A DNA stretch of 32,000 nt from Pseudomonas aeruginosa. Lineage in GTDB: Bacteria; Pseudomonadota; Gammaproteobacteria; Pseudomonadales; Pseudomonadaceae. Within the stretch, counting starts at the first letter, position 1, and each line of letters starts with the position of its first letter. A program made the translations under genes and the position numbers. The DNA lies in assembly GCF_001457615.1 (NCBI RefSeq), contig NZ_LN831024.1:3060001-3092000 (forward strand), in the 5' to 3' direction. The notes beneath the pieces are model-generated. The model saw only the letters and a list, made by a program, of their open reading frames with translations. It made no database searches and was not told where the DNA came from. Positions 11,651 through 30,371 of the stretch are shown here, piece after piece.

Positions 11651-11662
11651 GCAAAACGATGC

Positions 11663-11690: not shown

Positions 11691-11715
11691 ATGGACGCGG
11701 CCGGTGCCGTGAAAC

Positions 11716-15194: not shown

Positions 15195-15481
15195 TGTCGT
15201 TCTCCAGGATCTCTGCCGGGACGGTGATGGTTTGTCGTCGTCCAGCGCGGCGGCCAACCTGTGCCTTGCCCGGCAGGGAATGGGCACGGGGAAACCACCT
15301 GTCGGGGGAAGCTGCCGTCGGAAGACGATTCTGTCCGGGGCGTTACAGCGATGGCATGGGTTCGGCCACTCACGCGCATCAGTTGTCCGCTCGGCTCGAT
15401 CTGGCCAGGCTGGGCCGGACTCGCTATTCATGCCGCTTGGACGACGATCGAGCGCTGGGATCGCATGATGCTTATATAGTT

Positions 15482-15842: not shown

Positions 15843-17426
15843 TCAGTCAATCGCCGCCCGCGTCCCAACCCCGTCCACCAACCGCGCAATCCCCAATGGG
15901 TTGCCATCCTTCAGCGCTTCCGGCAGCCACGCGTCCGGGTAGTTCTGGTAGCACACCGGGCGCAGGAAACGGTCGATGGCCAGGGTGCCCACCGAGGTGC
16001 CGCGGGCGTCCGAAGTGGCCGGGTACGGGCCGCCGTGGACCATCGCGTCGCAGACTTCCACGCCGGTCGGGTAGCCGTTGAGCAGCAGGCGTCCTGCCTT
16101 CTGTTCCAGGAGCGGTACCAGGTCGGCGAAGGACGCCAGGTCTTCCGCTTCGGCGATCAGGGTCGCGGTGAGCTGCCCGTGCAGCCCATGCAGCGCGCGC
16201 TTCAGTTCGGCGTGGTCGGCGACCTCGACGACCACGCTGGCCGGGCCGAAGACTTCTTCCTGCAGCAACTCGTCGCCCTCCAGCAGCAGGCTGACGTCCG
16301 CCTGGAACAGTTGCGGCCGGGCCTGGCGGCCCTCCTGCGGTTGCCCGGCGAGATGGCGGACGCGCGGGTGGGCGTGCAGCGCCGCCAGGCCTTTTTCATA
16401 GCTGGCCAGCGTGCCGGCGTTGAGCATGGTCTGCGCCGGCTGGTCGTCCATGCGGGCGGCGAAGCGTTCGAGGAACGCCGAGAATTGCGCAGAGCGGATG
16501 CCGATGACCAGCCCGGGATTGGTACAGAACTGGCCGCAGCCGAGCACCACCGAGGCACTCAGTTCGTCGGCCACGGCCTCGCCGCGCTTCTTCAGCGCCG
16601 CCGGCAGCAGCACCACCGGGTTGATGCTGCTCATCTCGGCGAACACCGGGATCGGCTGCGCCCGGGCGGCCGCCATGTCGCAGAGGGCGCGGCCGCCCTT
16701 CAGCGAACCGGTGAAGCCGACCGCCTGGATCGCGGGGTGGCGTACCAGCCGCTCCCCTACTCCGCCGCCGTAGATCATGTTGAACACGCCCGCCGGCATG
16801 CCGGTGCGCTCGGCCGCGCGGAGGATCGCCGCGGCGACCCGTTCGGCGGTGGCCATGTGTCCGCTGTGCGCCTTGAACACCACCGGGCAGCCGGCGGCCA
16901 GGGCCGCGGCGGTATCGCCGCCGGCGGTGGAGAACGCCAGGGGGAAGTTGCTCGCGCCGAACACCGCCACCGGGCCGAGGCCGATCCGGCACTGGCGCAG
17001 GTCGACGCGTGGCAGCGGCTTGCGTTCGGGCCGGGCGCGGTCGATGCGCGCGCCATGGAAGTCGCCGCGCCGCAGGACTTCGGCGAACAGGCGCAGCTGG
17101 CCGCTGGTGCGGCTGCGTTCGCCCTGGATGCGCGTGGCCGGTAGCGCGGTTTCACGGCAGACGATGGCGACGAAATCGTCGTCCAGCGCGTCGAGTTCGG
17201 CGGCGATGGTATCGAGGAATTCCGCGCGGCGGCTGGCCGGCAGTTGCCGGTAGTGCGGGTAGGCGCTGGCGGCGGCTTCGGCGGCGGCGTCCACTTCTTC
17301 CGGGGTGGCTTGCACGAAGCGGTACGGCAGCGCCTCACCGCTGGCGGCGTCGAGGCTTTGCAGGAAGAGCGTGCCGGCCGCGCTGCGGGCGCCGCCGATG
17401 AAGTTGTGTCCGAGGATGGCTGTCAT
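15843..17426 (-). CDS. Aldehyde dehydrogenase, alpha-ketoglutarate semialdehyde (2,5-dioxovalerate) dehydrogenase type
   Basis: 527 aa ALDH of the long KGSADH type (FGASNFPLAFS, FTGS, EMSSINP, GQFCTNPG). It is the last gene of the lyxonate-type operon. Confidence 0.9.
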   Translation of the reverse strand: MTAILGHNFIGGARSAAGTLFLQSLDAASGEALPYRFVQATPEEVDAAAEAAASAYPHYRQLPASRRAEFLDTIAAELDALDDDFVAIVCRETALPATRIQGERSRTSGQLRLFAEVLRRGDFHGARIDRARPERKPLPRVDLRQCRIGLGPVAVFGASNFPLAFSTAGGDTAAALAAGCPVVFKAHSGHMATAERVAAAILRAAERTGMPAGVFNMIYGGGVGERLVRHPAIQAVGFTGSLKGGRALCDMAAARAQPIPVFAEMSSINPVVLLPAALKKRGEAVADELSASVVLGCGQFCTNPGLVIGIRSAQFSAFLERFAARMDDQPAQTMLNAGTLASYEKGLAALHAHPRVRHLAGQPQEGRQARPQLFQADVSLLLEGDELLQEEVFGPASVVVEVADHAELKRALHGLHGQLTATLIAEAEDLASFADLVPLLEQKAGRLLLNGYPTGVEVCDAMVHGGPYPATSDARGTSVGTLAIDRFLRPVCYQNYPDAWLPEALKDGNPLGIARLVDGVGTRAAID

Positions 17427-17553: not shown

Positions 17554-18549
17554 TCAGAGCGCTACCACCCGCCCCGGCGTCAGTGCGGTCTCGACGGCGG
17601 CGATGCCATTGCGCAGCGGCGCGCCGAACTCGGCCATGGCGATCTCGAAGACATCCCCCGGAGCAGCCTTGATCCCGTCGGCGAAGGACAGCGTGGCGGT
17701 ACCGAAGTAATGCACGTGGACGTCGCCCGGACGGAGGAACTGCGCGTACTTGAAATGGTGGTACTCGAGGTTCTCCAGGCTGTGGCACATGTTGTCCTCG
17801 CCGGAAAGGAACGCCTGCTGCCAGAGCACTTCGCCGTCGCGCAGGATCCGGCTCTCGCCCTGCAGGTGGCGCGGCAGTTCGCCGACCCGCAGCTCCGGCC
17901 CGTAGCAGCAGGCGCGTAGCTTGGAATGCGCCAGGTACAGGTAGTTGCGGCGCTCCATCAGGTGGTCGGAGAACTCGTTGCCCAGGGCGTAGCCGAGCCG
18001 GTAAGGCCGGCGGTCATCGCCGATCAGGTAGAGCCCGACCAGCTCCGGTTCCTCGCCGGCGTCCTCGGCGAAGGCCGGTAGCGGGAAGTCCGCGCCGGGG
18101 CGCACGACGATGCCGCCGTCGCCCTTGTAGAACCATTCGGGCTGCGCGCCGACCTGGCCCGCCGGTGGCTTGCCGCCCTCCAGGCCCCACCTGAAGATGC
18201 GCATGGTGTCGGTCAGCGCGGTCTCGTCGCCCTGGTTCTGCTGGTGCATGCGGTCGCGCGTCGCGGCGCTGCCCAGGTGGGTCAGGCCGGTGCCGCTGAC
18301 CAGGCAATGGGCCGGGTCGTCATGATCCAGCGGCGGCAGCACCCTTCCCTCCTCCAGCAACCCGGCATAGTCCGGGCCTGGCTCGCTGCCTCGGCGCAGC
18401 ACCTCGTCGTGCAGGCCGCTGCCCGCGCGAATCGCCGCCAGCCCCAGTTCGCGCGTGCTGCGCACGCCGCGCAGCACCTGTATCCCGGCGCCTTCGACGA
18501 CGCCGACCCGGCGCTGCCCTGCCCGGTCCTCGAATTGAATCAGCCGCAT
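17554..18549 (-). CDS. Fumarylacetoacetate-hydrolase (FAH) superfamily protein; 2-keto-3-deoxy-pentonate (L-lyxonate-type) dehydratase candidate
   Basis: 331 aa and GguC/AraD-like in length. It is sandwiched between an enolase-superfamily acid-sugar dehydratase and KGSADH, which is the known lyxonate arrangement. AGGAGG SD upstream. Confidence 0.8.
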   Translation of the reverse strand: MRLIQFEDRAGQRRVGVVEGAGIQVLRGVRSTRELGLAAIRAGSGLHDEVLRRGSEPGPDYAGLLEEGRVLPPLDHDDPAHCLVSGTGLTHLGSAATRDRMHQQNQGDETALTDTMRIFRWGLEGGKPPAGQVGAQPEWFYKGDGGIVVRPGADFPLPAFAEDAGEEPELVGLYLIGDDRRPYRLGYALGNEFSDHLMERRNYLYLAHSKLRACCYGPELRVGELPRHLQGESRILRDGEVLWQQAFLSGEDNMCHSLENLEYHHFKYAQFLRPGDVHVHYFGTATLSFADGIKAAPGDVFEIAMAEFGAPLRNGIAAVETALTPGRVVAL

Positions 18550-18576: not shown

Positions 18577-19752
18577 TCACTCGATGATGATGAAATCCTT
18601 GAGGTGCTCTTCGGATATCTCCAGGCCCAGGCCGGGCTTGTGGTCGTCCAGCTGGATATAGCCGTCGACCGGCTGCGGCTCGCCCTTGAACACGTAGTAG
18701 AACAGCTCGTTGCCGACCTCGACGTCGAACACCGGGAAGAACTCGGCCATCGGCGAGGCGGTGCTGGCCATGGTCAGGTGATAGTTGTGCAACTGTCCGG
18801 CGTGCGGGATCACCGGCACCGACCAGGCCTCGGCCATGGCGTTGATCTTGCGCGCGGCGGTGATCCCGCCGACGCGGTTGGTGTCGTACTGGATGACGTC
18901 CACCGCGCGGCGCTCCAGCAGGTCCTTGAAGCCGTGGCCGGTGAATTCGTGCTCGCCGCCGGAGATCGGCATGATCCCCATCTTCTTCAGCTCGACGTAG
19001 CCCTCGATGTCATCGGCGATCACCGGCTCCTCCAGCCAGCGCGGTTCGAACTCGGCGAGCTTCGGCAGCATCCGCCGGGCGTATTCCAGGGTCCAGCCCA
19101 TGTAGCATTCGAGCATGATGTCGATGTCCGGCCCGGCCAGTTCGCGTAGCGCGCGGACCTGCTCGATGTTCCTGCGCATGCCCGTCGGGCCGTCCTTGGG
19201 GCCATAGCCGAAGCGCATCTTCAGCGCGGTGAAGCCCTGGTTCAGGTAGCCCTGGGCCTCTTCGAGGAAGGCGTCGAGGTTGTCGTTGGCGTAGAGCTTC
19301 GAGGCGTAGGTCCAGATCTTCTCCTTGGTGCGGCCGCCGAGCAGCTTGAACACCGGCTTGTTCACCGCCTTGCCCATGATGTCCCAGATCGCCAGGTCCA
19401 CCGCCGAGATGGCTGCCATGCCGATGCCCTTGCGGCCCCAGGCGTGGGTGCGGCGATACATCTTCTGCCAGATGTACTCGTTGTCGAACGGGTCTTCGCC
19501 GATGCAGATCGGCGCCAGGTAGAGGTCGACGATTTCCTTCGCCACGCGCGGCGCCAGGGCGCAGTTGCCGATGCCGACGAGGCCGTCGTCGGTCTCGATC
19601 TCTACCACCAGCCAGCCGTGGAAGCGGAACGAACCCATGGCGTCTCCCTTCTCGAACAGGATGTCGCTGGCATTGGTGCAGAAGTGCGCCTGCGGCGGGA
19701 CGACCTTGCCCTTCCATTCGAAGACGCGGGTACGGACGGATTTGATTTTCAT
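18577..19752 (-). CDS. lyxD: Enolase-superfamily (mandelate racemase subgroup, RhamD-like) acid-sugar dehydratase; L-lyxonate dehydratase candidate
   Basis: 391 aa and collinear with L-rhamnonate-dehydratase-like proteins ([45 protein letters not shown]). The gene context matches the published LyxD cluster of P. aeruginosa, from memory. Confidence 0.8.
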
Positions 19753-19782: not shown

Positions 19783-21105
19783 TCAGCCGGCCTGCCGCGC
19801 TCGCAGCGGGACGGACGACGATCCGGAAGTCTTCAGCCGGGCCAGCAGGCAGGCGCCGAGCAGGCCGACGGCGGCCAGGGCGAACATGCCGGCGCGCGGG
19901 TCGGCGAACTGGCTTTCCATGAGGGTCTTGAGGTTCGGCGCGACGAAGCCGCCGAGGTTGCCCAGGGAGTTGACCAGGGCGATGCCGCTGGCCGCGGCCG
20001 CACCGCTCAGGTAGCCGGTGGGAAGGGTCCAGAACAGCGGCTGCACCGAGACGAAGCCGGACGCGGCGAAGCAGAAGGCGATCACCGCCAGGCCCAGGTT
20101 GCCGGCCAGCGCCGAGGCGGCGATACCGGCTGCGGCCATGCCCAGCATGGCCACCGCGAGCTGGCGATGCTGGCCGCTGCGGTCGGCCTGGCGGGTCACC
20201 AGGCGCGTTACCACCAGGGCGCAGACCCAGGGAATCGCGGTGATCAGGCCGACGTTCAGGCCGACCTGGCCGTCGAGGAAGCTGGCGATGCGGGTCGGCA
20301 GGTAGAACACCACGCCGTACACGCTCATCTGGATGGTGAAGTAGACCAGGCAGAACTTCAGCACCTGGCCGCTGCGCAGGGCGCTGAGGAAGCCGTGCGG
20401 GCCGCGTGCCTGTTTGCGGGTGTCTTCTTCGGCCAGCTCGCCTTCCAGCGCCCGCTTCTGCTCGTCGCTCAGCCAGCCGGCATCGCGCGGGCGGTCGACC
20501 AGGTAGAAGTAGGCGGCAATGCCGACCAGCGAGGCCAGCAGGCCCTCGGTGACGAACAGCCACTGCCAGTTGGCCAGGCCGAAGATGCCGTGGAACTCCA
20601 GCAGCCAGCCGGACAGCGGACCGCCCAGCACCAGCGCCAGCGGCAGGCCGAAATAGAACAGGCCGAGCGCCTGGGCACGGCTGCGCTGCGGGAACCAGTA
20701 GGTGAGGTAGAGGATGATGCCGGGGAAGAAGCCCGCCTCGGCGACGCCCAGCAGGAAGCGCAGGACATAGAAAGTCATGGCGTCGTCGGCGAACATCATC
20801 GCCGCCGAGACCAGGCCCCAGGTGACCATGATCCTGCACAGCCAGACCCTGGCGCCGAGGCGGTGCAGCATCAGGTTGCTGGGTACCTCGAAGCAGGCAT
20901 AGCCGATGAAGAAGATGCTCGCGCCGAACGCGAAGGCGGCATCGCCGAGGCCGGTGTCGGCTTGCAGGAAGGCCCGCGCGTAACCGACGTTGGCCCGGTC
21001 GATGAAAGCCAGTACATACATCAGGACCAGGAAAGGCAGGAGCCGCAGGCGGCTGGTGGCGATCGCCGAGGACAGCAGCCTGGCGTGGTCGTTCATGGCG
21101 CTCAT
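19783..21105 (-). CDS. MFS transporter, anion:cation symporter (ACS; TtuB/DgoT-like) family
   Basis: 440 aa from ATG 21105 (MSAMNDH) with 12-TM MFS character and the FIDRANVG motif. The track start 21210 runs through the promoter region. Confidence 0.9.
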   Translation of the reverse strand: MSAMNDHARLLSSAIATSRLRLLPFLVLMYVLAFIDRANVGYARAFLQADTGLGDAAFAFGASIFFIGYACFEVPSNLMLHRLGARVWLCRIMVTWGLVSAAMMFADDAMTFYVLRFLLGVAEAGFFPGIILYLTYWFPQRSRAQALGLFYFGLPLALVLGGPLSGWLLEFHGIFGLANWQWLFVTEGLLASLVGIAAYFYLVDRPRDAGWLSDEQKRALEGELAEEDTRKQARGPHGFLSALRSGQVLKFCLVYFTIQMSVYGVVFYLPTRIASFLDGQVGLNVGLITAIPWVCALVVTRLVTRQADRSGQHRQLAVAMLGMAAAGIAASALAGNLGLAVIAFCFAASGFVSVQPLFWTLPTGYLSGAAAASGIALVNSLGNLGGFVAPNLKTLMESQFADPRAGMFALAAVGLLGACLLARLKTSGSSSVPLRARQAG

Positions 21106-21111
21106 GGAGGG

Positions 21112-21130
21112 CTTCCTTCTTGTTGTTGTT
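21112..21130 (-). promoter_or_regulatory. AAC-AAC-AAC-AAG-AAG (five AAN repeats) fused to a GGAAG SD; candidate Hfq/Crc site
   Basis: Minus strand reads GAACAACAACAAGAAGGAAGCCCTCC-ATG. Confidence 0.5.
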
Positions 21131-21214
21131 CGACGCGGAGGCGGCATGGCCGCTTGCGTTGGGCCGACTGTAGCCAGGCCGCTCCCGCGCGGATAATCAC
21201 TTCTGCGCATTCAT

Positions 21215-21265
21215 CGATAACCCCAGGCAATACCTTTTAACCAATCAGCCAATCGCCGGTTATCG
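21215..21265. promoter_or_regulatory. Dyad CGATAACC-N35-GGTTATCG upstream of the MFS-lyxD operon; candidate operator pair
   Basis: Perfect 8-bp arms at 21215-21222 and 21258-21265. The same arms and the same 35-nt spacer recur at 26083-26133. Confidence 0.55.
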
Positions 21266-21290
21266 GGCAGCAGCGAGAACGGCCCTGCGC

Positions 21291-22541
21291 TCAGAGCAGC
21301 GGCAGGGAATACGAGAGGATCAGGCGGTTCTCGTCGACATCGGCGGCATGGTTGGACCGCAGCATGGCGTTGCGCCAACGCAGGCCGAGGTTCTTCAGCG
21401 GGCCGCTCTGGATCACGTAGGCGACGTCCACGTCGCGTTCCCAGGCGCGGCCGTCGTCCATCGCCTTCGTCCGGGCATGGGCGCCGTTGGCGTAGCGGGC
21501 CATGGCGGTCAGCCCGGGAATGCCCAGGGCGACGAAGTCGTAGTCGTAGCGCAGTTGCCAGGAGCGCTCGCCGGCGCTGGTGAAGTTGCGCACCTGGATG
21601 TCGTTGACCAACGGCGTGCTGGTGCCGGCGATGTAGAGCATCCCGTCGTCGCCGTACATGCGCTGGTAGCCGGCGCCGAGGCTGTGGCCGCCGCGGGTCG
21701 CGCTGAAGAAACCGGTCAGCGCGCGATTCTCCAGTTCCCCGAGCTTCGCGGCACCTTCGTCGCGCGTGTCGAAGAGCCCGACGCTGACGCCCAGGCGCCA
21801 GCCGCCGAAGCTCTGCTTGTGGCTCAAGCTGTAGTAGTCCTGCCGGTAGATGTCTTGCAGTCGCGCCTGCCACAGCCCGACCTGGCTGCGCTCGGCATTG
21901 AAGCGGTACTCCGCGCCCAGGTAGTCGAAACGGTCGGAGAACGCCCCGCCGCGCCCATCCACCGAGAGGTCCTGGTGGTCGCTGGAGTTGCGCTGGCTGA
22001 GCGAACGCATCTGCCCGCCGTGCAGGGTCAGGCCGGCGATTTCCCTGGAGGTCAGCATGCCGCCCTGGAAGGTCTGTGGCAGCAGGCGGCCGTCGTTGCG
22101 CAGGAGGATTGGCAGTTCCGGCAGCAGTTCGCCGAGCTTCAGCTCGGTATTCGACAGCTTCAGCTTCGGCGCCACGCCCAGTCGCGCGTAGTCGTCCGCT
22201 GCGCGTCCGTCGGCGTGGCGTGGCAGCAGCCCGGAGCCAGCACGATCAGGGCTGCTGTCGAGCTTCAGGCCGAGCTGGCCGAGCAGCTCGACGCCGAGGC
22301 CCAGGGTGCCCTGGGTATAGCCGGACTTCGCCTGTAGGAGAAAGCCTTGGGCCCACTCCTCCTGTTTCGACTGCGCCGCGCCGGGCTGGCGGAAGTCGCG
22401 ATTGAAATAGAGATTGCGCAGGCCGAGGCTGACGCTGGCGTCTTCGATAAAGCCCTCGGCGCCGGCGAGCGACGGCAGGCCGGCCAGCAGGACCGGAGCG
22501 AGCGAGGCGGATTTCAGCAGGTTCGGAGCGGAACGGGTCAT
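21291..22541 (-). CDS. OprD-family (OpdK-subfamily-like) substrate-specific outer-membrane porin
   Basis: 416 aa with a signal peptide, then EGFIEDASVSLGLRNLYFNRDFR, and a C-terminal LILSYSLPLL, all hallmark OprD features. The position corresponds to the porin I recall as OpdG (PA2213) in the PAO1 cluster. This is unverified. Confidence 0.95.
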   Translation of the reverse strand: MTRSAPNLLKSASLAPVLLAGLPSLAGAEGFIEDASVSLGLRNLYFNRDFRQPGAAQSKQEEWAQGFLLQAKSGYTQGTLGLGVELLGQLGLKLDSSPDRAGSGLLPRHADGRAADDYARLGVAPKLKLSNTELKLGELLPELPILLRNDGRLLPQTFQGGMLTSREIAGLTLHGGQMRSLSQRNSSDHQDLSVDGRGGAFSDRFDYLGAEYRFNAERSQVGLWQARLQDIYRQDYYSLSHKQSFGGWRLGVSVGLFDTRDEGAAKLGELENRALTGFFSATRGGHSLGAGYQRMYGDDGMLYIAGTSTPLVNDIQVRNFTSAGERSWQLRYDYDFVALGIPGLTAMARYANGAHARTKAMDDGRAWERDVDVAYVIQSGPLKNLGLRWRNAMLRSNHAADVDENRLILSYSLPLL

Positions 22542-22557
22542 TGTTGTTTTTCCTTTT
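22541..22557 (-). promoter_or_regulatory. A-rich AAGGAAAAACAACA tract (AACAACAA running into the ATG); candidate Hfq/Crc site
   Basis: Minus strand reads GGGAAAAGGAAAAACAACA-ATG. Confidence 0.4.
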
Positions 22558-22713
22558 CCCAGGCCGAAGCGAGCCGTGGAGCGCTGCGGCTCCAGGCGAT
22601 GTGTCTCTCGTCGAAGGTGCGACGCCTCCTGCCCCGCCGCGACGGTACAGGGAGGCGCCAGGGAGCGCGTTACGAAGGGGCGGCGCTCTGGTTGTCGCGT
22701 CGCATGCAGGCGA

Positions 22714-23727
22714 TCAGGCTTTGCGCCTGCCCATCCGGCAGGCGATCTCGAACGCCTGGCGGGTGGCGCCGACGTCGGCCCTTCCCTGCCCGGCGATATC
22801 GAAGGCGGTACCGTGGGCCGGCGTAGCGATGGGGATCGGCAGGCCGCCCTGGACGGTCACGCCGCGGGAGAAGCCCATCAGCTTGATCGCGATCTGCCCC
22901 TGGTCGTGGTACATGGTCACCACCGCGTCGAAGGCACGGGCGTCGCCCTGCACCTTGAGGAAAATGGTGTCGGCGGGATACGGGCCGTCGGCGGCGATCC
23001 CCTGTTCGCGCGCCTTCTGCACCGCCGGAGCGATGATGTCCAGCTCCTCGCGGCCGAAGCTGCCGTTGTCGCCGTTGTGCGGGTTCAGTCCGCAGACGCC
23101 GATGCGCGGCCGCGCCAGGCCGCTGCGGCGCAGCGCGTCGTCGATCAGGCGGATCGCCTCCCCTACCCGCTCCTGGCTGAGCAGGCCCGGCACCTCGGCC
23201 AGGGCTACGTGGGAGGTCACCCGCGAGGTCCAGAGGTCGTCGAGGACGTTGAACTCGCAGAACGGGCCGCCGAACCCCAGGCGCTCGGCGAACCAGTGCA
23301 ACTCGTCGCTGTGGTCCATGCCGGCCATGTGCAGCGAGGTCTTGTTCAGCGGGCCGAAGAGGATCGCATCGGTCCTGCCGCTGCGGGTCAGTTCGAGGGC
23401 CAGCGCGAGGGTCTCCAGGCTGTAGCGGCCACCGACGGCGCTCGCTTCGCTGCGTGGGAACTCGTCCCCGCCCTGGCTGAGCCAGGGATGCAGCAGTGGC
23501 GTGGCGTCGGCGAAATCCAGGGTCTCCAGCGCGTCGATGCGCCGGTAGGGGAATTCGCAGCCGGCGATGCGCATGCCGCGACGCATTTCCGCTTCGTCGG
23601 CGATCAGCACGATGTGCGCCTTCTCGCGCACCTCGGTGTCGGCCAGCAGGCGGGCGATCAGTTCCGGGCCGATGCCGGCCGGATCGCCCAGGACCATGGC
23701 CAGTCGCGGTAGGGATGGAGCGTTCAT
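22714..23727 (-). CDS. PdxA-family NAD-dependent oxidative decarboxylase (4-hydroxythreonine-4-phosphate dehydrogenase-like); 2-carboxy-L-lyxonate decarboxylase candidate
   Basis: 337 aa with PdxA motifs (LGDPAGIGPE, GLNPHNGDNG, TMYHDQG, TPAHGTAFDIAG). ATGA overlap with the upstream amidohydrolase gene. Confidence 0.85.
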   Translation of the reverse strand: MNAPSLPRLAMVLGDPAGIGPELIARLLADTEVREKAHIVLIADEAEMRRGMRIAGCEFPYRRIDALETLDFADATPLLHPWLSQGGDEFPRSEASAVGGRYSLETLALALELTRSGRTDAILFGPLNKTSLHMAGMDHSDELHWFAERLGFGGPFCEFNVLDDLWTSRVTSHVALAEVPGLLSQERVGEAIRLIDDALRRSGLARPRIGVCGLNPHNGDNGSFGREELDIIAPAVQKAREQGIAADGPYPADTIFLKVQGDARAFDAVVTMYHDQGQIAIKLMGFSRGVTVQGGLPIPIATPAHGTAFDIAGQGRADVGATRQAFEIACRMGRRKA

Positions 23728-24683
23728 GGGGAAGTCCTCGGGTCGGGCGACGCCTGCTGCAGGCGCACGGTGTCGGGTACGGTGCGGTAGATGCGCCGCG
23801 CGTTGCTATGGAAAAGCCGTTCCTGGTCGGCGTACGGCAGGTCGGCGACGATGCGTTTGAAACCGCCATAGATGTCGTCGAACGAGCCGCACAGGCTGTC
23901 CACCGGGAAGTTGCTGGCGAACATCGCCCGCTCGACGCCGAACAGGGCGATGCTTTCGCGGACGATCCAGGCGTTGTCCTCGACGCTCCAGCGCCGGCCG
24001 GCCTGGCCGATGCCGGAGATCTTCAACGCCACGTTGGGGCATTCGGCGAAGCGCGCCATGGCCCGTTGCCAGGCGGCCAGCCCCTCCTCGCTGCGATCGG
24101 ACGGCAGGCCGGCGTGGTTGAGCACGATCAGCGTATCGGGGAAGTCGCGCGCCAGGCATGCGGCCTCGGCGAGGTTCCACCAGGGTGTCTGCAGGTCGAA
24201 GTGCAGGCCGTGCCGGGCCAGCTCGGCATAGCCGCGACGCCAGCGCTCGTCGCTCATCAGGCTGCGCAGCTCGCCGACCTGTTGCGGGCGTTGCGGACCG
24301 CCGGGCTTGTGGCGGACGCTGCGGACCCGTGCGAAGCCCGCCTGCGCCGCCAGCACCTCGGCGGCGTCCGGCGCGTCCAGCCAGGCCTGCGCCACCACCG
24401 CGTGGGGCGCGCCATGGCGTTCGGCGAGGTGATGCACGAAGCGGGTTTCGCCGAGCGGATCGCGCGGGTCCCACTCGGTTTCCACGTAGACCGTCTCGAC
24501 CACCCGGTGTGCGCCGACGTCGCCGAAGTAGTCCGCCGGCAGGTAGCGGCGCTTGATCGCGCTGTAGTCGCCGTAGCGGAACGGAATCTTGGCGTCCTCC
24601 GCGAGCCAGGGGTGGTAGTTCGCCTGCGGGTCCCAGAAATGATGATGGGCGTCGACGATCGGCCCGTCGTACAGCTCAGCCAT
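23724..24683 (-). CDS. Amidohydrolase_2 (PF04909-type) metal-dependent hydrolase; sugar-acid lactonase candidate
   Basis: 319 aa with N-terminal IVDAHHHFWD and LNHAG plus a late Asp region typical of the LigI / fuconolactonase subgroup. 8-nt overlap with the upstream MFS gene. Confidence 0.85.
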   Translation of the reverse strand: MAELYDGPIVDAHHHFWDPQANYHPWLAEDAKIPFRYGDYSAIKRRYLPADYFGDVGAHRVVETVYVETEWDPRDPLGETRFVHHLAERHGAPHAVVAQAWLDAPDAAEVLAAQAGFARVRSVRHKPGGPQRPQQVGELRSLMSDERWRRGYAELARHGLHFDLQTPWWNLAEAACLARDFPDTLIVLNHAGLPSDRSEEGLAAWQRAMARFAECPNVALKISGIGQAGRRWSVEDNAWIVRESIALFGVERAMFASNFPVDSLCGSFDDIYGGFKRIVADLPYADQERLFHSNARRIYRTVPDTVRLQQASPDPRTSP

Positions 24684-26001
24684 GCTTTGCCTCGGTCTTG
24701 TCCAGGGAAATCAGCAGGGTGCCGGCGATGAAGGCTGCCGAGCAGAGGGCGAAGAAGCCCAGCACCGCGGCATATCCGCCCAGGTGTTGCAGCAGCAGCC
24801 CGACCAGGATCGGCACGGCGATGCCGCCGAGGCTGCCGGCCATGTTCATCACCCCGCCGACCAGGCCGACCCGGGCCGGAGCGGCGAGCAAGGCCGGAAA
24901 GCTCCAGTACAGGCTGCCCCACATCAGGAAGAAGGCGGTCAGCGCCAGCAGGGTCACGGCGGCATAGGCATCTTCCAGGCTCGGCAACAGCAGGAAGGCG
25001 ACCAGCGCCGCGAGGCCCGAGACCGTCAGCAGGCCCTTGGCCGCCAGGCCGCGGCGCACGCCCTTGCGGATCAGCAGGTCGCAGAGGAAGCCGCCGACCA
25101 GGGAACCGACGGCGCCGCAGAGGAAGATGACGAAGGTCGCGGCGCCGATACCCTTGATATCGAAACCGCGCGCCTGCGCCAGGTAGCTAGGACCCCAGGT
25201 CAGCAGGCCGAAGAACACCATGGCCCAACTGGCGCGGCCGAGGACGATACCGACCAGGGAGCGGCCGGCGATGCCCAGTCTTCCGCCGGCCTGGCAGTCC
25301 GCTTCGGCGAGCGGGGTGGTGCGGTCGGCGTTGATCCGGCCCAGCTCGGCGGCGTTGACCCCGGGATGCTCGGCCGGGTCGTCGCGCAGGTAGTGCCAGG
25401 CCAGCCAGGCCATGGCCAGGGTGGCGATGCCGGCGATGAAGAAGGCGCTGCGCCAGGAGCCGAGCACGGCGATCAGGTAGGCGATGACCAGTCCGCCGAG
25501 AGCGACGCCCAGCGGCCCTCCGCAGTCCATCAGCACGGCGCCGCGGCTGCGTTCGCTGGAGCCCAGCCACAGCGAGTTGAGCTTGCCGCCGGAGGGGAAC
25601 AGCGGCGCTTCCGCCGCGCCCAGGGCGACCCGGGCGAACATCAGCGACAGGCCGCCGCTGGCGAAGGCCGCGAGGGTCTGGAAGGCTCCCCAGAGGCCGG
25701 TGGACCAGCCGATCACCCGGCGCGGGCCGTAGCGGTCGATCAGCCAGCCGCCGGGAATCTGCAACAGCGCGTAGGCCCAGAAGAAGCTGCTGAGGATCAG
25801 CCCCTGCATGCTCGGCGTGAGCTGGAATTCACCGGCGATGGTGGGCATGGCGATGGACAGCGAGACCCGGTCGACCAGGTTGATCACCGTCAGGGCGAAG
25901 ACGATGGCGAAGATGCGCCAGCGGACGTTGCTGGGTTTTGCGGCAGTGGCCTTGTCCTGGGCAGGATCAGCCTGGAGCACGGCGGTCTGTGCCTGAGCCA
26001 T
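24676..26001 (-). CDS. MFS transporter, anion:cation symporter family (hexuronate/glucarate-transporter-like)
   Basis: 441 aa from ATG 26001 (MAQAQTAV) with motif LVDRVSLSIAMP...GWLIDRYGPRRV. The track start 26100 lies in the promoter region. Confidence 0.9.
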   Translation of the reverse strand: MAQAQTAVLQADPAQDKATAAKPSNVRWRIFAIVFALTVINLVDRVSLSIAMPTIAGEFQLTPSMQGLILSSFFWAYALLQIPGGWLIDRYGPRRVIGWSTGLWGAFQTLAAFASGGLSLMFARVALGAAEAPLFPSGGKLNSLWLGSSERSRGAVLMDCGGPLGVALGGLVIAYLIAVLGSWRSAFFIAGIATLAMAWLAWHYLRDDPAEHPGVNAAELGRINADRTTPLAEADCQAGGRLGIAGRSLVGIVLGRASWAMVFFGLLTWGPSYLAQARGFDIKGIGAATFVIFLCGAVGSLVGGFLCDLLIRKGVRRGLAAKGLLTVSGLAALVAFLLLPSLEDAYAAVTLLALTAFFLMWGSLYWSFPALLAAPARVGLVGGVMNMAGSLGGIAVPILVGLLLQHLGGYAAVLGFFALCSAAFIAGTLLISLDKTEAKHG

Positions 26002-26009
26002 GGGTCGTA

Positions 26010-26029
26010 CCTCTTTTATTGTTGTTCTT
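26010..26029 (-). promoter_or_regulatory. AAG-AAC-AAC-AAT-AAA (five AAN repeats) fused to SD AGAGG; candidate Hfq/Crc site
   Basis: Minus strand reads CAAGAACAACAATAAAAGAGGTACGACCC-ATG. Confidence 0.5.
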
Positions 26030-26082
26030 GTGCTGCGGAACTGGGTTGGCAGGTCCGGCAGGCCCACTATCCGGCTTTCCAT

Positions 26083-26133
26083 CGATAACCGTCTAATCAA
26101 AGCTGCTCATACGGCCATTTCCTACGGTTATCG
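26083..26133. promoter_or_regulatory. Dyad CGATAACC-N35-GGTTATCG in the MFS / tctC divergent region; second copy of the operator pair
   Basis: Perfect 8-bp arms at 26083-26090 and 26126-26133, with a 35-nt spacer identical to the 21215-21265 copy. The left arm is embedded in the identical 11-mer CATCGATAACC in both copies. Confidence 0.55.
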
Positions 26134-26162
26134 CTCCAGGTATCCGACATCCGCTTCCACTC

Positions 26163-26212
26163 ATAACCCCAGGCTATCGGTGTATGCCTTATTTTGAGTG
26201 GACGCTTATCGG
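26163..26212. promoter_or_regulatory. Additional related half-sites toward tctC: ATAACCCCAGGC (26163-26174), TATCGG (26175-26180), TTATCGG (26206-26212)
   Basis: The 12-mer ATAACCCCAGGC is identical to 21217-21228. The TATCG core recurs twice more. Confidence 0.35.
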
Positions 26213-26240
26213 TGCGCTTCGCACACTCCGCTCTACCCAT

Positions 26241-26261
26241 AACAACAATGACAACCAGAGG
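26241..26261 (+). promoter_or_regulatory. AAC-AAC-AAT-GAC-AAC tract followed by SD AGAGG; candidate Hfq/Crc site
   Basis: Plus strand reads CATAACAACAATGACAACCAGAGGTCCTCC-ATG. Confidence 0.45.
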
Positions 26262-26267
26262 TCCTCC

Positions 26268-27281
26268 ATGCGTACCGCATATGCGCGCTCCGTCCCCTCC
26301 TTCCTGGCCGCTTGCGCCCTGCTCTGCTGCACCACCCTGCCCGCCCTGGCGGCTGCCTGGAAACCCGAAGAGAACCTGGAGATCGTCGTCGCCGGCGGTC
26401 CCGGTGGCGGCACCGACCAACTCGCCCGCCTGGTCCAGTCGGCGATCAGCCAGAACAAGCTGCTCGACGTCAACACCGTGGTGCTGAACAAGGGCGGCGG
26501 CAACGGCGCCGAAGCTTTCCTCGACCTGAAGCTGGCCAAGGGCAACGCGCACAAGCTGGTGATCGGCACCAACAATGTCTACCTGCTGCCGTTGGTGGCC
26601 CGGCTGGGCTACCAATGGACCGACCTGACGCCGGTGGCGGCGGTGGCCGAGGACGACTTCATCCTCTGGACCTACCAGGCGGCGCCGTGGGCGGACGCCG
26701 CGGCGTTCCTCGCCGATCTGAAGAAGGACGCGGCAGGCATGCGCTTCGGCGGCAGCCAGTCGAAGGACGTCGACCAGACTCTAAGCCTGCTGCTCGGCAA
26801 GCAGGTCGGCGGCAAGCTGACCTACATCCCCTTCAAGAGCGGCAGCGAGGCGTCCATCCAGTTGGCCGGCAGGCACATCGCCGCCAACCTCAACAACCCG
26901 GCGGAAAGCCTCAGCCAGTGGCGCGGCGGCCAGGTCCGGCCGCTCTGCGTGTTCAGCCACGAGCGCATGATCTACACCGCCAAGGTCGCTGCCGAGCAGT
27001 CCTGGGCGGACATCCCCACCTGCCACGAGCAGGGCCTGGGCATCGACCAGTACCGCTTCCCGCGCACCGTGTTCCTGCCCGGCGGAGTCAGCGACGAGCA
27101 GCGCGCCTTCTACGTCGAGTTGATGCGCAAGGTCAGCCAGACCGCCGAGTTCAGGGACTATGTCGAACGCTCGGCGCTGGCGCCGACCTTCCTCGCAGGC
27201 GAGGACCTGGTTAGCTACATCGAGAAGGACCGCCAGCGCGTCATCCCGCTGTTCCAGGAAGCCGGCTGGCTTCGCCAGTAA
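26268..27281 (+). CDS. tctC: Tripartite tricarboxylate transporter (TTT) periplasmic substrate-binding protein, TctC/Bug family
   Basis: 337 aa with a signal peptide (ACALLCCTTLPALAAA) and the GGPGGGTD motif typical of Bug/TctC. Start ATG 26268 follows the AGAGG SD. Confidence 0.9.
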   Translation: MRTAYARSVPSFLAACALLCCTTLPALAAAWKPEENLEIVVAGGPGGGTDQLARLVQSAISQNKLLDVNTVVLNKGGGNGAEAFLDLKLAKGNAHKLVIGTNNVYLLPLVARLGYQWTDLTPVAAVAEDDFILWTYQAAPWADAAAFLADLKKDAAGMRFGGSQSKDVDQTLSLLLGKQVGGKLTYIPFKSGSEASIQLAGRHIAANLNNPAESLSQWRGGQVRPLCVFSHERMIYTAKVAAEQSWADIPTCHEQGLGIDQYRFPRTVFLPGGVSDEQRAFYVELMRKVSQTAEFRDYVERSALAPTFLAGEDLVSYIEKDRQRVIPLFQEAGWLRQ

Positions 27282-27308
27282 CCCGCGTAGCGCGACCAGG
27301 AGACGAAC

Positions 27309-27839
27309 ATGTCCAGCTCATCCGATGCGCCGCTGGTCGCCACCCGCTGGGTGGAGATCGGCCTGGCGCTGTTCACCGCCGCGCTCGGCGCGATCGTCAT
27401 GTACGGCAGCCAGGATATCGGCATCGGCTGGGGCGACAGCGGCCCCGAGGCCGGCTATTTCCCCTTCTACATCGGCCTGCTGCTGAGCGCCGCCAGCCTC
27501 GGCAACCTGCTCTTGGCCCTGTGCCGCTGGCGGGCGCTGGGTACCTCGTTCGTCGCCCGCACGGCCTTTCGCCGGGTGCTTGCGGTGTTCCTGCCGATCG
27601 CCGCCTACGTGGCGGCCATGCCGTTCGCCGGGATCTACCTCGCCTCCGCGTTGTTCATCGCCTGGTTCATGTGGCGCGACCGTAGCCGCGACAAACCCTA
27701 CGGCGTGCCGCTGATCGTCACGCTGTCCTGCGGTGCGGCGCTGGCCAGCTACCTGGTCTTCGCCGTCTGGTTCAAGGTCCCGCTGGATGCCGGAATACTG
27801 GTCGACCTTGCGGCCTTCGTCGGGAGCGCCAGGCCATGA
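27309..27839 (+). CDS. tctB: TTT small membrane subunit, TctB family
   Basis: 176 aa with four hydrophobic helices. It lies between tctC and tctA with a 4-nt overlap onto tctA. Confidence 0.85.
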   Translation: MSSSSDAPLVATRWVEIGLALFTAALGAIVMYGSQDIGIGWGDSGPEAGYFPFYIGLLLSAASLGNLLLALCRWRALGTSFVARTAFRRVLAVFLPIAAYVAAMPFAGIYLASALFIAWFMWRDRSRDKPYGVPLIVTLSCGAALASYLVFAVWFKVPLDAGILVDLAAFVGSARP

Positions 27840-29356
27840 GCGAATTCGATTCCCTGATGCAGGGCATGAGCCTGGTCCTCAGCGCCCATCACCTCGGCCT
27901 GATGGTGATCGGCGTGCTGCTCGGCATCCTGGTCGGCGTGCTGCCAGGCCTCGGTGCGCCGAACGGGGTGGCGCTGCTGCTGCCGCTGACCTTCAGCATG
28001 TCGCCGGTGTCGGCGATCATCCTGCTTTCCTGCATGTACTGGGGCGCGTTGTTCGGCGGCTCGATCACCTCGATCCTGTTCAACATCCCCGGCGAGCCGT
28101 CGTCGGTGGCCACCACTTTCGACGGCTACCCGATGGCGCGCAACGGCCAGGCCGGCGAAGCGCTGACCGCCGCCTTCACCTCGGCGCTCCTCGGGGCGCT
28201 GGTCGGCGTGCTGCTGCTGACCTTCCTGTCCACCCATATCGCTCGCTTCGCCCTGGCGTTCAGCTCGCCCGAGTTCTTCGCCGTCTACCTGCTGGCGTTC
28301 TGCACCTTCATCGGCATGAGCCGCAACCCGCCATTGAAGACCCTGGTGGCGATGACCATCGGCTTCGCCATGGCCGCCGTGGGCATGGATACCGTGTCCG
28401 GCGAGCTGCGCCTGACCTTCGACCAGCCCTGGCTGCTTTCCGGGCTGAGTTTCGAGGTGGCGGTGATCGGCCTGTTCGGCATCGGCGAGATCCTCTGCAC
28501 GGTGGAGGAAGGCCTGGTGTTTCGCGGCGAGCGCGCACGCATCACGCCGATGGTGATCCTGCGTACCTGGGCCAGGCTGCCGCGCTACTGGCTGACCTGG
28601 CTGCGCAGCGCGCTGGTCGGCTGCTGGATGGGCGTCACTCCGGGCGGCCCCACCGCCGCCTCGTTCATGAGCTACAGCCTGGCGCGGCGCTTCTCGAAGA
28701 ACCGCGAGAACTTCGGCAAGGGCGAGGTGGAAGGCGTGATCGCTCCGGAGACAGCCGACCATAGCGCCGGCACCAGCGCCCTGCTGCCGATGCTGACGCT
28801 CGGCATCCCCGGCTCGGCGACCGCCGCGGTGATGCTCGGTGGCCTGATGATCTGGGGGCTGCATCCCGGGCCGACGCTGTTCGTCGAACAGCACGACTTC
28901 GTCTGGGGCCTGATCGCCAGCATGTACCTGGGCAACGTGGTCAGCCTGATCGTGGTACTGGCGACCGTGCCGCTGTTCGCCTCGATCCTGCGGATTCCGT
29001 TCGCCATCGTCGCACCGATCATCGTCATGGTCTGCGCCATCGGCGCCTACTCGGTGCACAACGCCATGCTCGACGTGGTCCTGATGCTGCTGTTCGGCGC
29101 GCTCGGCTACCTGTTCAAGAAACTCGGCTACCCCATCGCCCCGCTGGTGCTCGCCGCGGTGCTCGGCGACAAGGCCGAGGACGCGTTCCGCCAGTCGATG
29201 CTGTTCTCCGACGGGCAACTCTCGGTGTTCTGGTCCAACCCGCTGGTGGCCAGCCTGACCGGCGCGGCGCTGGCGATGCTGCTCTGGCCGTTGCTGGCGC
29301 GGTGCGCCGGGGCGCTGTTCCGGCGTGGCCGGCGGAGTCTCCGGCATGCCGCCTGA
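27836..29356 (+). CDS. tctA: TTT large permease subunit, TctA family
   Basis: 506 aa polytopic protein with conserved GVLPGLG...and GIPGSATAAVMLG segments characteristic of TctA. Confidence 0.95.
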   Translation: MSEFDSLMQGMSLVLSAHHLGLMVIGVLLGILVGVLPGLGAPNGVALLLPLTFSMSPVSAIILLSCMYWGALFGGSITSILFNIPGEPSSVATTFDGYPMARNGQAGEALTAAFTSALLGALVGVLLLTFLSTHIARFALAFSSPEFFAVYLLAFCTFIGMSRNPPLKTLVAMTIGFAMAAVGMDTVSGELRLTFDQPWLLSGLSFEVAVIGLFGIGEILCTVEEGLVFRGERARITPMVILRTWARLPRYWLTWLRSALVGCWMGVTPGGPTAASFMSYSLARRFSKNRENFGKGEVEGVIAPETADHSAGTSALLPMLTLGIPGSATAAVMLGGLMIWGLHPGPTLFVEQHDFVWGLIASMYLGNVVSLIVVLATVPLFASILRIPFAIVAPIIVMVCAIGAYSVHNAMLDVVLMLLFGALGYLFKKLGYPIAPLVLAAVLGDKAEDAFRQSMLFSDGQLSVFWSNPLVASLTGAALAMLLWPLLARCAGALFRRGRRSLRHAA

Positions 29357-29423
29357 GCCTGCGTCTGGCGGCGGGGTGGATTTCTTGTCACCCTGGGTCT
29401 CCCCGCCGCCAGCGAGATACGCC

Positions 29424-30371
29424 ATGTCCCGGATTCCCGACGCCAGCATCATCCACAGCCGCCTGCGCCTGCGCCAGTTGCGCCTGATGCTGGCCCTGGA
29501 GGAACTCGGCTCGCTGCGCCGCGCCGCCGACGAGATTGGCATGACCCAGCCGGCGGCGACCAAGATGCTCCACGAGGCCGAAGACCTGCTCGGCGTCGAG
29601 TTGTTCGAGCGTTTGCCGCGCGGCATGCGCGCGACGCCTTTCGGCGAGACGCTGATCTATTACTCGCGGATGATCTTCGCCGAGCTGTCCGGGATGCGCG
29701 AGGAACTGGTCGCGCTGGAATCCGGCAACCTCGGCCGGGTCACCGTCGGAGCGATCCCGGCGCTGGCCTCGAGCCTGCTGACGCGCACCATCGCCACCCT
29801 GAAGCAGAGTCATCCACGGCTGTCGATGAGCATCCAGGTGGACACCAGCGACGTGCTGGTCCAGGCCCTGCAACAGGACCAGCTGGACGTGGTGCTCGGA
29901 CGCATCCCCAGCGGCGCGCGCACCGACGACCTGGTGTTCGACAGCCTCGGCGAGGAAGAACTCTGCGTGGTGGTCGGCGCGCAGAACCCGTTGTCGCAGG
30001 CACGCAAGCTGGACTGGGGCGAGTTGCAGGAGCTGACCTGGGTGTTGCAGCAGCACCCCAGCCCGATGCGCGGGATCGTCAACCAGGCCTTCCACAATGC
30101 GCGCATCGACCTGCCGAGCAGTATCGTCGAGACCACCTCGATCATGACCCTGCTCTCCCTGCTGCAACAGACCGACATGATCGGCATCACTCCACGCTCG
30201 GTGATCGAGGACTACCCGGGCAAGCACCTGCTGGCGATCCTGCCGATCCAGCTGGAGCCGCGCCTGCCGCCCTACGGCCTGATCACCCGACGCAACCGGG
30301 TCCACTCCTCGGCCATGCAGACCTTCATGGCCAGCGTACATGCCGAACAGGCGCGGCACCTGGCGAAGTGA
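29424..30371 (+). CDS. LysR-family transcriptional regulator
   Basis: N-terminal wHTH (LRQLRLMLALEELGSLRRAADEIGMTQPAATKMLHEAE..LGVELFER) plus a LysR substrate-binding domain. Start set at ATG 29424; the track start 29325 overlaps tctA. Confidence 0.9.
   Translation: MSRIPDASIIHSRLRLRQLRLMLALEELGSLRRAADEIGMTQPAATKMLHEAEDLLGVELFERLPRGMRATPFGETLIYYSRMIFAELSGMREELVALESGNLGRVTVGAIPALASSLLTRTIATLKQSHPRLSMSIQVDTSDVLVQALQQDQLDVVLGRIPSGARTDDLVFDSLGEEELCVVVGAQNPLSQARKLDWGELQELTWVLQQHPSPMRGIVNQAFHNARIDLPSSIVETTSIMTLLSLLQQTDMIGITPRSVIEDYPGKHLLAILPIQLEPRLPPYGLITRRNRVHSSAMQTFMASVHAEQARHLAK

Follow-up and report, generated by a model that had tools for sequence, protein, structure and literature searches.

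We analyzed two pairs of 8-bp inverted arms that lie upstream of two MFS transporter genes in a 32-kb stretch of DNA (the window, taken at its full length), together with the LysR-type regulator encoded nearby. Reen et al. 2013 list 24 PAO1 primers (Table S1), and every one was placed as expected in the window, 21 of them exactly; thus, the window is PAO1-like Pseudomonas aeruginosa. Primer mapping also supplied the gene names: the regulator is PA2206, the MFS gene at the first arm pair (MFS1) is PA2214, that at the second (MFS2) is PA2210, and tctC is PA2209. Gene calls, based on Pfam and NCBIfam domain searches of the window proteins, are listed below.

15843-17426, minus strand: aldehyde dehydrogenase (Pfam/NCBIfam)
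17554-18549, minus strand: AraD1/GguC-family protein, the PA2216 "FAH" gene (Pfam/NCBIfam, primer mapping)
18577-19752, minus strand: LyxD, an enolase-superfamily acid-sugar dehydratase (Pfam/NCBIfam)
19783-21105, minus strand: MFS1 (PA2214), heading the L-lyxonate operon, followed by LyxD, AraD1/GguC, and aldehyde dehydrogenase (Pfam/NCBIfam, primers)
21291-22541, minus strand: OprD-family porin (Pfam/NCBIfam)
22714-23727, minus strand: PdxA-like protein (Pfam/NCBIfam)
23724-24683, minus strand: amidohydrolase_2 protein, lactonase-like (Pfam/NCBIfam)
24676-26001, minus strand: MFS2 (PA2210), heading the MFS2-lactonase-PdxA-like-porin operon (Pfam/NCBIfam; synteny in about 45 Pseudomonas loci)
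26268-27281, plus strand: tctC (PA2209; Pfam)
27309-27839, plus strand: tctB (Pfam)
27836-29356, plus strand: tctA (Pfam)
29424-30371, plus strand: LysR-type regulator PA2206, PcaQ-like (HTH_1 and LysR_substrate domains, primer match)

By Pfam, tctCBA (PA2209-PA2207, 26268-29356, plus strand) encodes a tripartite tricarboxylate-type transporter. From the domain hits, we associate the PA2215 region with L-lyxonate and the lactonase/PdxA-like pair with the ascorbate pathway: Ghasempur et al. 2014 (reference 42 of PMC6336799) reportedly assigned PA2215 and its neighbors to the L-lyxonate pathway, and Stack et al. 2020 (cited in PMC11066805) are said to have placed the lactonase and PdxA-like pair in a bacterial ascorbate pathway.

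PA2206 has the domains (HTH_1, 2.1e-17; LysR_substrate, 8.4e-43) and the length (about 300 aa) of a LysR-type protein and is similar over its full length to the TsaR, BenM, and OxyR structures. Its best NCBIfam match is PcaQ (TIGR02424), at 163.2 bits and so below the cut-off of 303.8. The longest open reading frame opens with the GTG at 29325 and so overlaps the tctA end; Reen et al. 2013 expressed the protein from ATG 29424, and their PA2206 expression primers match exactly at 29414-29429 and 30357-30371. If ATG 29424 is the start, the gap between tctA and PA2206 is 67 bp. The gene follows tctA in the same orientation, unlike the classical divergent LysR arrangement, and a dyad scan found no dyad resembling the recognition sites described below upstream of PA2206, the 67-bp gap included.

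The arms themselves are real, nonrandom, and conserved. CGATAACC occupies 21215-21222 and 26083-26090, GGTTATCG occupies 21258-21265 and 26126-26133, each spacer measures 35 nt, and the 11-mer CATCGATAACC holds the left arm in both copies, all as a first-pass annotation of the window had reported. Its remark that the motif was not seen in other intergenic DNA of the window is borne out as well, since the 8-mer occurs at just four places in the window (0.29 expected; none of 100 shuffles reached four). The footprinting that it proposed gave a consistent answer: in the MFS2 module, arms and spacing are kept without a single indel over 51 bp in 45 sequences, and in the MFS1 module, all 34 sequences have the distal ATAAC, at 37 or 38 nt (in one case 36) from GTTATC. 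The annotation had further listed three separate related elements, ATAACCCCAGGC (26163-26174), TATCGG (26175-26180), and TTATCGG (26206-26212). Their positions are correct, but pairwise alignment and a mismatch-tolerant scan join them into one third module, tCATAACC-N35-GcTTATCG (26161-26211), which has the same 43-bp register and faces tctC. Indeed, a MAFFT alignment of the two window intergenic regions paired site 1 with this third module (2B), not with 2A. Nor are the spacers unrelated, as had been thought; in orthologues, blocks within them such as TTTGATTAGACG are strongly conserved.

The perfectly complementary 8-bp arms at the two sites could also denote an RNA stem with a loop of 35 nt, formed in a leader or by read-through and acting as an attenuator or riboswitch-like element, and read-through is conceivable at site 1, which lies 26 nt past the porin stop codon. 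However, none of the eight pairs shows a compensatory change among the 45 sequences, the two outer pairs are broken in 28 to 31 of them, and pairing does not exceed that of shuffles. No Rfam match was obtained at E ≤ 1, the arms lie upstream of the predicted transcription starts, and protein binding to one arm has been published (PMC3557286). We therefore give the RNA reading almost no credence.

That published binding identifies the protein. Reen et al. 2013 (PLoS One 8:e54479; PMC3557286) reported that PA2206 activates PA2214-15, raising PA2214-lacZ from 6 to 29 Miller units in P. aeruginosa, and that the promoter is also switched on in E. coli. In an electrophoretic mobility shift assay (EMSA), His-tagged PA2206 bound a -160 to +31 fragment at nanomolar concentrations and gave three complexes, and truncations showed that binding requires "LysR box 3," 5'-ATTGCCTGGGGTTAT-3' (PMC3557286). 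In the window, box 3 is 21217-21231 and contains both the left arm of site 1 and the 12-mer singled out in the first-pass annotation. Converted to window coordinates, the fragment from 21265 to 21075 was bound, and that from 21242 to 21075, which lacks the distal arm, was strongly bound; a fragment from 21423 to 21226, with the distal arm and just ATTGCC of box 3, was unbound, as was DNA from 21216 onwards. The same authors saw the likeness of the box to the PcaQ motif ATAACC-N4-GGTTAT and, in their Fig. S6, listed "PA2209 TTTCCTACGGTTA" among 18 untested in-silico hits (PMC3557286); this hit is window 26118-26130. Hence, LysR control of the lyxonate (PA2214) promoter, which the annotation had anticipated, had already been demonstrated by activation and EMSA (PMC3557286), and its suggestion of an undescribed operator cannot stand, with one box published and a PA2209-side box among the in-silico hits (PMC3557286). 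The regulator and one box being known, the operator is for the most part an ordinary one and in part already known. On the other two promoters, our literature search found no publication tying PA2206 to PA2209 or PA2210, and the main text of the HT-SELEX atlas does not mention PA2206.

In the LysR family model, a recognition site (RS) lies near -65, an activation site (AS1) covers the -35/-10 region, and the protein slides to a second activation site (AS2) upon induction (PMC11495319); the PcaQ site, for example, is centered at -65.5 (PMC5002191). The elements that we assign to the PA2214 promoter (P_PA2214) on this basis are as follows, with numbering relative to the predicted start.

21258-21265, minus strand, predicted -105 to -98: upstream accessory half-site, CGATAACC on the minus strand, which is the right arm of site 1
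21217-21231, minus strand, predicted -71 to -57: RS, ATTGC-CTGGG-GTTAT, the published box 3, holding the left arm of site 1
21196-21210, minus strand, predicted -50 to -36: AS2-like dyad, ATGCG-CAGAA-GTGAT
21190-21195, minus strand: predicted weak -35, TATCCG, 21 nt past the RS
21167-21172, minus strand: predicted -10, TACAGT, 17 nt past the -35-like hexamer; putative start near 21159

The arms of site 1 thus fall at -105 to -98 (the upstream ATAAC) and -62 to -55 (the better, promoter-proximal half of the RS). Alignment A3 comprised 34 promoters, those of MFS1 or, in loci lacking MFS1, of LyxD, and its layout reads as a lone ATAAC, 37/38 nt, ATCAC-CCCAG-GTTAT, CcGGATACGCATAAGTGATTAtCCG, about 17 nt, and CTGGCT-A-n-A-n-T. 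The accessory ATAAC is invariant in all 34 promoters with variable flanks, and the RS in other species is ATCAC-CCCAG-GTTAT. In the AS2-like dyad, A-50 is found in at least 90% and T-49 and G-38 A-37 T-36 are invariant or nearly so; TAnAnT is conserved at the -10, with variation at positions 3 and 5 alone. P_PA2214 has no downstream AS1-like half-site; its lone ATAAC lies 43 bp upstream of the promoter-proximal strong RS half. Two other promoter assignments were tried and rejected. A sigma-54 promoter, CTGGCT-N-AAGTCGC in the MFS1 leader, has a GG-to-GC spacing of 10 nt, not 12, and GATTAT (21193-21198) as the MFS1 -10 is GATTAG in many species.

The PA2210 promoter (P_PA2210) and, back to back with it, the PA2209 promoter (P_PA2209) carry the following elements.

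26117-26133, minus strand, predicted -73 to -57: RS of P_PA2210, ATAAC-CGTAG-GAAAT (26117-26131) plus a CG flank, holding the right arm of site 2
26096-26110, minus strand, predicted -50 to -36: AS2-like dyad of P_PA2210, ATGAG-CAGCT-TTGAT
26083-26099, minus strand, predicted -39 to -23: AS1-like TGATTAGACGGTTATCG of P_PA2210, overlapping the -35-like TAGACG (26090-26095)
26066-26071, minus strand: predicted -10 of P_PA2210, GATAGT; putative start near 26059
26163-26177, plus strand, predicted -71 to -57: RS of P_PA2209, ATAAC-CCCAG-GCTAT, the best dyad of the window
26184-26198, plus strand, predicted -50 to -36: AS2-like dyad of P_PA2209, ATGCC-TTATT-TTGAG
26195-26211, plus strand: AS1-like TGAGTGGACGCTTATCG of P_PA2209, overlapping the -35-like TGGACG (26199-26204), with TTGAsTAGACG in all sequences
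26222-26227, plus strand: predicted -10 of P_PA2209, CACACT, 17 nt past the -35-like hexamer, with CACACTC conserved (n = 41); putative start near 26234

The MFS2 consensus (alignment A2, n = 45) is ..ATAaC-N5-GcTAT-CgCC.TAT.....AG.TTTGATTAGACGGTTATC-N11-GATAGT, with the invariant blocks ATA/TAT, TTTGATT.GACGGT.AT, and ATAGT. The RS in orthologues is ATAAC-CCGAG-GCTAT, a T-N11-A dyad whose alignment positions A18 T19 and A31 T32 do not vary. A39 T40 and T49-T54 of the AS2-like dyad are likewise invariant, TTTGATTAGACGGTTATC in the AS1-like site is nearly so, and ATAGT of the -10 is invariant, 11 to 12 nt past TTATC. The AS1-like site (TGATT-AGACG-GTTAT) ends in the left arm of site 2 (26083-26090), so that the two arms fall at -73 to -66 (outer RS half) and at -30 to -23 (the GTTATC half-site, within the -35/-10 spacer). 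The tctC consensus (n = 41) is ATAACCcCAGGCTATCGGTGTATgtatTgTTTTGAsTAGACG-N17-CACACTC; its RS has one mismatch to ATAAC-N5-GTTAT, and ATAACCCCAGGCTATCGGTGTATG and, in the AS2-like dyad, A-50 T-49 and TTTTGA are conserved. CTTATCG, the outer half of its AS1-like site, forms the right arm of the third module in degenerate form and is confined to the window and loci L002, L005, L010, and L017. A GTTATC-type AS1-like half-site at -29 to -24, inverted and 43 bp from the outer RS half, is thus found at P_PA2210 in all species and at P_PA2209 in the aeruginosa clade, and together with the outer RS half it makes up the arm pair of the first-pass annotation at these two promoters. TTGACT/TTGATT at -40 to -35 was discarded as the true -35, its spacer to any -10-like hexamer being 21 to 22 nt.

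In the window, the RS centers of the PA2209 and PA2210 operators are 44 bp apart. REP-like (repetitive extragenic palindromic-like) palindromes, for example, CTGTAGGAGCGAGCTTGCTCGCGAT, separate the two operators in many species, with inserts in the tctC-MFS2 regions of L008, L009, L013, L016, L018, L019, L021, L024, L025, L029, and L030. Since such elements are inserted between the two operators, both work independently.

All three promoters share one geometry: a 15-bp RS, 21 nt, a -35-like hexamer, 17 or 18 nt, and a -10-like hexamer (nAnAnT). The same arrangement recurs in the P. putida locus L038 and in Ralstonia pickettii (L058), and the -10 candidates vary at tolerant positions alone.

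P_PA2210: RS ATAACCGTAGGAAAT, -35-like TAGACG, -10-like GATAGT
P_PA2209: RS ATAACCCCAGGCTAT, -35-like TGGACG, -10-like CACACT
P_PA2214: RS ATTGCCTGGGGTTAT, -35-like TATCCG, -10-like TACAGT
Ralstonia pickettii cluster (L058): RS ATAACGCCAGGTGAT, -35-like TAGTAG, -10-like TATAGT (a good -10)

If GATAGT, CACACT, and TACAGT, which are weak but conserved hexamers, are the -10s, the RS is centered at -64/-65 in every case. An AS2-like dyad at -50 to -36, 21 bp from the RS, has T-49, G-38, A-37, and T-36 invariant in all three classes; A-50 does not vary in the MFS2 and tctC classes and is kept by at least 90% of the MFS1 class. As had been proposed, these are LysR-type half-sites: a T-N11-A dyad, ATAAC-N5-GyTAT, is found at 21217-21231, 26117-26131, and 26163-26177, with ATA/TAT invariant in 34 to 45 orthologues. 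The lower-symmetry AS2-like and AS1-like blocks over the -35, which would act as activation sites, and the arm-to-arm distance of 51 bp also agree with a LysR operator, which spans about 50 to 60 bp. One LysR-type tetramer ordinarily covers such a distance (PMC11495319), and the looping that the annotation had invoked is thus dispensable.

The identical arms and 35-nt spacers, which the annotation had read as an identical architecture, raise the question of register. The MFS1 promoter might be built like that of MFS2, with the distal arm as the RS, box 3 as an AS1-like site over the -35, and CAGAAGT/CATAAGT, 11 nt past TTATC, as the -10; past the proximal arm, the two window promoters also have GGTTATCGATG.A....G.A.AGTG in common. 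We measured same-species ungapped identity of P_PA2214 to P_PA2210 and P_PA2209 over -75 to -5 as a function of shift. Identity was 0.49 and 0.51 with RS on RS, and it formed a secondary peak of 0.32 and 0.35 with module on module (shift -32/-33), against a background of 0.25 ± 0.044. Shift 0 is thus far better, about 5 to 6 standard deviations above background versus about 2. In addition, the -11 A or the -7 T, both critical, is missing from CAGAAG/ATAAGT, whereas the downstream TAnAnT is conserved as a typical -10. The EMSA data agree with the RS-on-RS register: box 3 acts as a high-affinity, indispensable anchor and the distal arm alone is unbound, which is RS-like rather than AS1-like behavior (PMC3557286). 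A shared architecture in the functional sense is therefore improbable. With the RS-on-RS register as the best, the 51-bp module lies at about -73 to -23 at MFS2 and tctC and at about -105 to -55 at MFS1, that is, shifted by 32 bp and flipped.

To define conservation and specificity, we mapped the window proteins onto the 80 loci (numbered with the prefix L) returned by a lactonase search. LysR-tctABC facing MFS2-lactonase-PdxA-(porin/MFS1)-LyxD and downstream genes was found at about 45 Pseudomonas and Phytopseudomonas loci, and a syntenic LysR orthologue, 80 to 88% identical, lies within the retrieved DNA of 43; the regulator is therefore widespread. All three promoter classes are conserved (MFS2, n = 45; tctC, n = 41; MFS1/LyxD, n = 34). 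The window contains three dyads with at most two mismatches from ATAAC-N5-GTTAT, which are exactly the three RS, and about 91 of the 99 dyads with at most one mismatch in 858 kb of Pseudomonas loci fall in these promoter regions. A candidate fourth target, ATAACACAnGGTGAT (L007:16653, L008:15412, L016:13660, L019:15402, and L021:15406), was dismissed as a coding-sequence coincidence; in L008, the one locus examined, it sits within a conserved 387-aa open reading frame on the opposite strand. Recent promoter duplication as the sole cause of the likeness was also rejected, the MFS proteins being about 28% identical and each promoter being separately conserved in 34 to 45 species.

Some loci differ in layout. 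In L002, L010, L035, L042, L046, L049, and L051, LyxD comes straight after PdxA (about 10950-12100), with MFS1, the porin, and the third promoter all missing, and the lyxonate genes are fused to the MFS2-led operon. These loci belong to Phytopseudomonas, to the P. oryzihabitans group, and, for L035, to an unclassified Pseudomonas isolate. Alphaproteobacterial clusters have an unrelated divergent LysR (36 to 38% identity) and different operators, and their LysR-MFS2 intergenic regions contain no ATAAC-N5-GTTAT. In Ralstonia pickettii chromosome 2 (L058:5180-5260), the geometry ATAACGCCAGGTGAT ... TAGTAG (17 nt) TATAGT stands upstream of a TctC/Bug-like gene that heads a pdxA-lyxD-MFS-lactonase operon directly after a LysR gene, and the operator type therefore reaches beyond Pseudomonas. 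In a metagenome-assembled genome labelled uncultured Bartonella sp. (L062:5260-5300), CATTAGACAGTTATA lies between a 49%-identical LysR gene and pdxA-lyxD-MFS-lactonase; it resembles the invariant Pseudomonas block GATTAGACGGTTATC, with no clear RS at the expected distance in that locus.

Another, unlinked factor (for example, of the GntR, IclR, or LacI type) or two independent proteins might bind the arms, PA2206 at box 3 being incidental. A lone half-site at 43 bp is unusual for a single dimeric site, the distal site in the P. fluorescens group, GATAACCCTATC, is itself a small palindrome, and PA2206 had no effect on PA2207-09 in the study of Reen et al. (PMC3557286). Against this, no further regulator gene is conserved in the cluster, operators and LysR orthologue occur together in each of the 43 complete Pseudomonas loci, the half-sites fit the PcaQ-type motif of a LysR subfamily, and activation in E. 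coli favors direct action (PMC3557286). We consider such a factor very unlikely. As the first-pass annotation had surmised, the two MFS-led operons and tctCBA are most likely under the control of a single factor, namely the LysR protein encoded at 29424-30371.

Altogether, the arms are probably the outermost half-sites of three PA2206 operators at the sigma-70-type promoters P_PA2214, P_PA2210, and P_PA2209, all with one RS/AS2-like/-35/-10 layout. Binding and activation at P_PA2214 are published, and the conservation and geometry of all three were computed here; regulation of PA2210 and PA2209 by PA2206 is predicted, as are the promoter hexamers, the transcription starts, the AS1/AS2 roles, and the inducer. 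Several points weigh against this assignment. Without inducer, and as data not shown, Reen et al. found the expression of PA2205 and PA2207-09 unaffected by PA2206 (PMC3557286). At P_PA2210, the window RS makes a poor dyad (ATAAC-N5-GAAAT). The distal-arm fragment alone was unbound in the EMSA (PMC3557286), so that any function of the upstream half-site of P_PA2214 is putative. A consensus scan found no strong sigma-70 promoter in either intergenic region; this fits activator-dependent promoters, but the -64 position then depends on weak hexamers, and the numbering is a predicted one. The AS1/AS2 assignment and the inducer are things that we infer. Finally, PA2206 is neither divergent from a target nor autoregulated, unlike most classical LysR members; Reen et al. 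found its own promoter unbound (PMC3557286).

Based on the "sliding dimer" model of the LysR family, a PA2206 tetramer would be anchored on the RS. Without inducer, its second DNA-binding pair would occupy the far half-site, which is separated by 43 bp from the outer RS half. At P_PA2210 and P_PA2209, the tetramer would then span the RS and AS1, cover the -35 region, and keep the promoter shut, whereas at P_PA2214 it would span the upstream half-site and the RS and be parked off the promoter. With inducer, the second pair would move in by one helical turn onto the AS2-like dyad, and polymerase would be recruited at the weak -35. The inducer is probably L-lyxonate or an earlier ascorbate-derived acid, a guess from gene content. 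This arrangement at P_PA2214 may explain both the activation of PA2214 by overexpressed PA2206 without inducer and the three EMSA complexes (PMC3557286).

Besides the operators, the leaders contain a further element. AACAACAA is found just upstream of the MFS1, MFS2, and tctC Shine-Dalgarno sequences (21120-21130 and 26019-26026, minus strand; 26241-26248, plus strand), and orthologue leaders keep an A-rich ACAAnAAyAAtAAAA at its position. We take it to be the "CA motif" AAnAAnAA, to which Hfq/Crc binds when catabolites repress genes in Pseudomonas, which suggests that translational catabolite repression may be added to PA2206 control. Elsewhere in the window, the only other regulator is a sigma-54-dependent activator (PrpR_N, PAS, AAA+) at 9698-11650 on the plus strand, unrelated to the operators; it is divergent from minus-strand genes for an APH-family phosphotransferase, an acyl-CoA dehydrogenase, a short-chain dehydrogenase, an AMP-binding enzyme, and a sodium:solute symporter. 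The minus-strand region 12278-15431 encodes a PqiA-like protein (14574-15431) and a six-MlaD-domain protein (12278-14581), a paraquat-inducible PqiAB-type lipid-transport pair.

Compared with the box of Reen et al. 2013, the locus, the protein, and the 15-bp sequence ATTGCCTGGGGTTAT are the same; that study described one box (PMC3557286), whereas here there are three multipart operators of likely classical geometry, conserved together with the regulator in more than 40 Pseudomonas species, and their predicted targets make up one catabolic regulon. The PcaQ operators of Sinorhizobium meliloti and Agrobacterium, the nearest named subfamily, share the ATAAC/GTTAT half-sites and, on the predicted numbering, the position near -65. 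However, at 163 bits versus a cut-off of 303.8, PA2206 is not a PcaQ equivalog, its dyad ATAAC-N5-GTTAT is 15 bp rather than the 16 bp of ATAACC-N4-GGTTAT, and it targets sugar-acid transport and catabolism genes (MFS, tctC, lyxonate), not the protocatechuate (pca) genes. BenM/CatM, CbnR, DntR, and OccR combine a high-symmetry T-N11-A dyad near -65 with weaker sites over the -35 and about 50 bp per tetramer (PMC11495319), much as predicted here for PA2206. In contrast to these, the PA2206 gene is not divergent and is reported not to be autoregulated, and one of its promoters swaps the downstream AS1-like site for an upstream half-site. The distances in the PA2206 operators, 21 bp from the RS to the second dyad and about 32 to 42 bp from the RS to the outer site, presumably resemble those of sites 1, 2, and 3 of the BenM benA operator. 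The PA2214 layout also resembles that of CysB, which has accessory sites, such as CBS-K2 upstream of the cysK activation site, that a tetramer can bridge to the activation site without inducer and with which several EMSA complexes form; these were reportedly the subject of Hryniewicz & Kredich 1994. Unlike them, the PA2214 upstream site appears from its sequence to be a single 5- to 6-bp half-site at a fixed distance of 37/38 nt. Reen et al. cite Hryniewicz & Kredich 1994 for the three-complex pattern (PMC3557286).

New here are the predicted PA2210 and PA2209 operators, the accessory half-sites, the likely classical geometry, and the wide conservation. The advance is incremental, and this is not a novel kind of regulatory system. 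Nonetheless, it provides a concrete regulon and operator model for PA2206, tied to the adjoining pathway for L-lyxonate and ascorbate-derived sugar acids, and predicts two direct targets, PA2210 and PA2209. It would correct published claims that homologues of PA2206 are nearly absent outside P. aeruginosa and that PA2206 leaves its neighbors unaffected. The three operator variants (downstream AS1-like site, none, and upstream half-site) constitute a natural experiment on how LysR promoters are tuned and may be useful for biosensor design.

Reen et al. described PA2206 as an oxidative-stress regulator of a "non-classical" kind and saw few homologues of it outside P. aeruginosa (PMC3557286), and 2024 reviews still class it as an oxidative-stress, virulence-linked regulator (including PMC11495319). 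Its reported targets also include pvdS and PA4881. As a more tentative proposal, possible but in our judgment doubtful, PA2206 might instead be the pathway sensor of a Pseudomonas-wide ascorbate-breakdown/L-lyxonate regulon (PA2207-PA2217) that uses a 43-bp "ruler" in two placements. If so, one regulator would impose promoter-specific basal logic, holding PA2210 and PA2209 shut while being parked away at PA2214, and the oxidative-stress phenotype would stem from the catabolism of oxidized vitamin C products.

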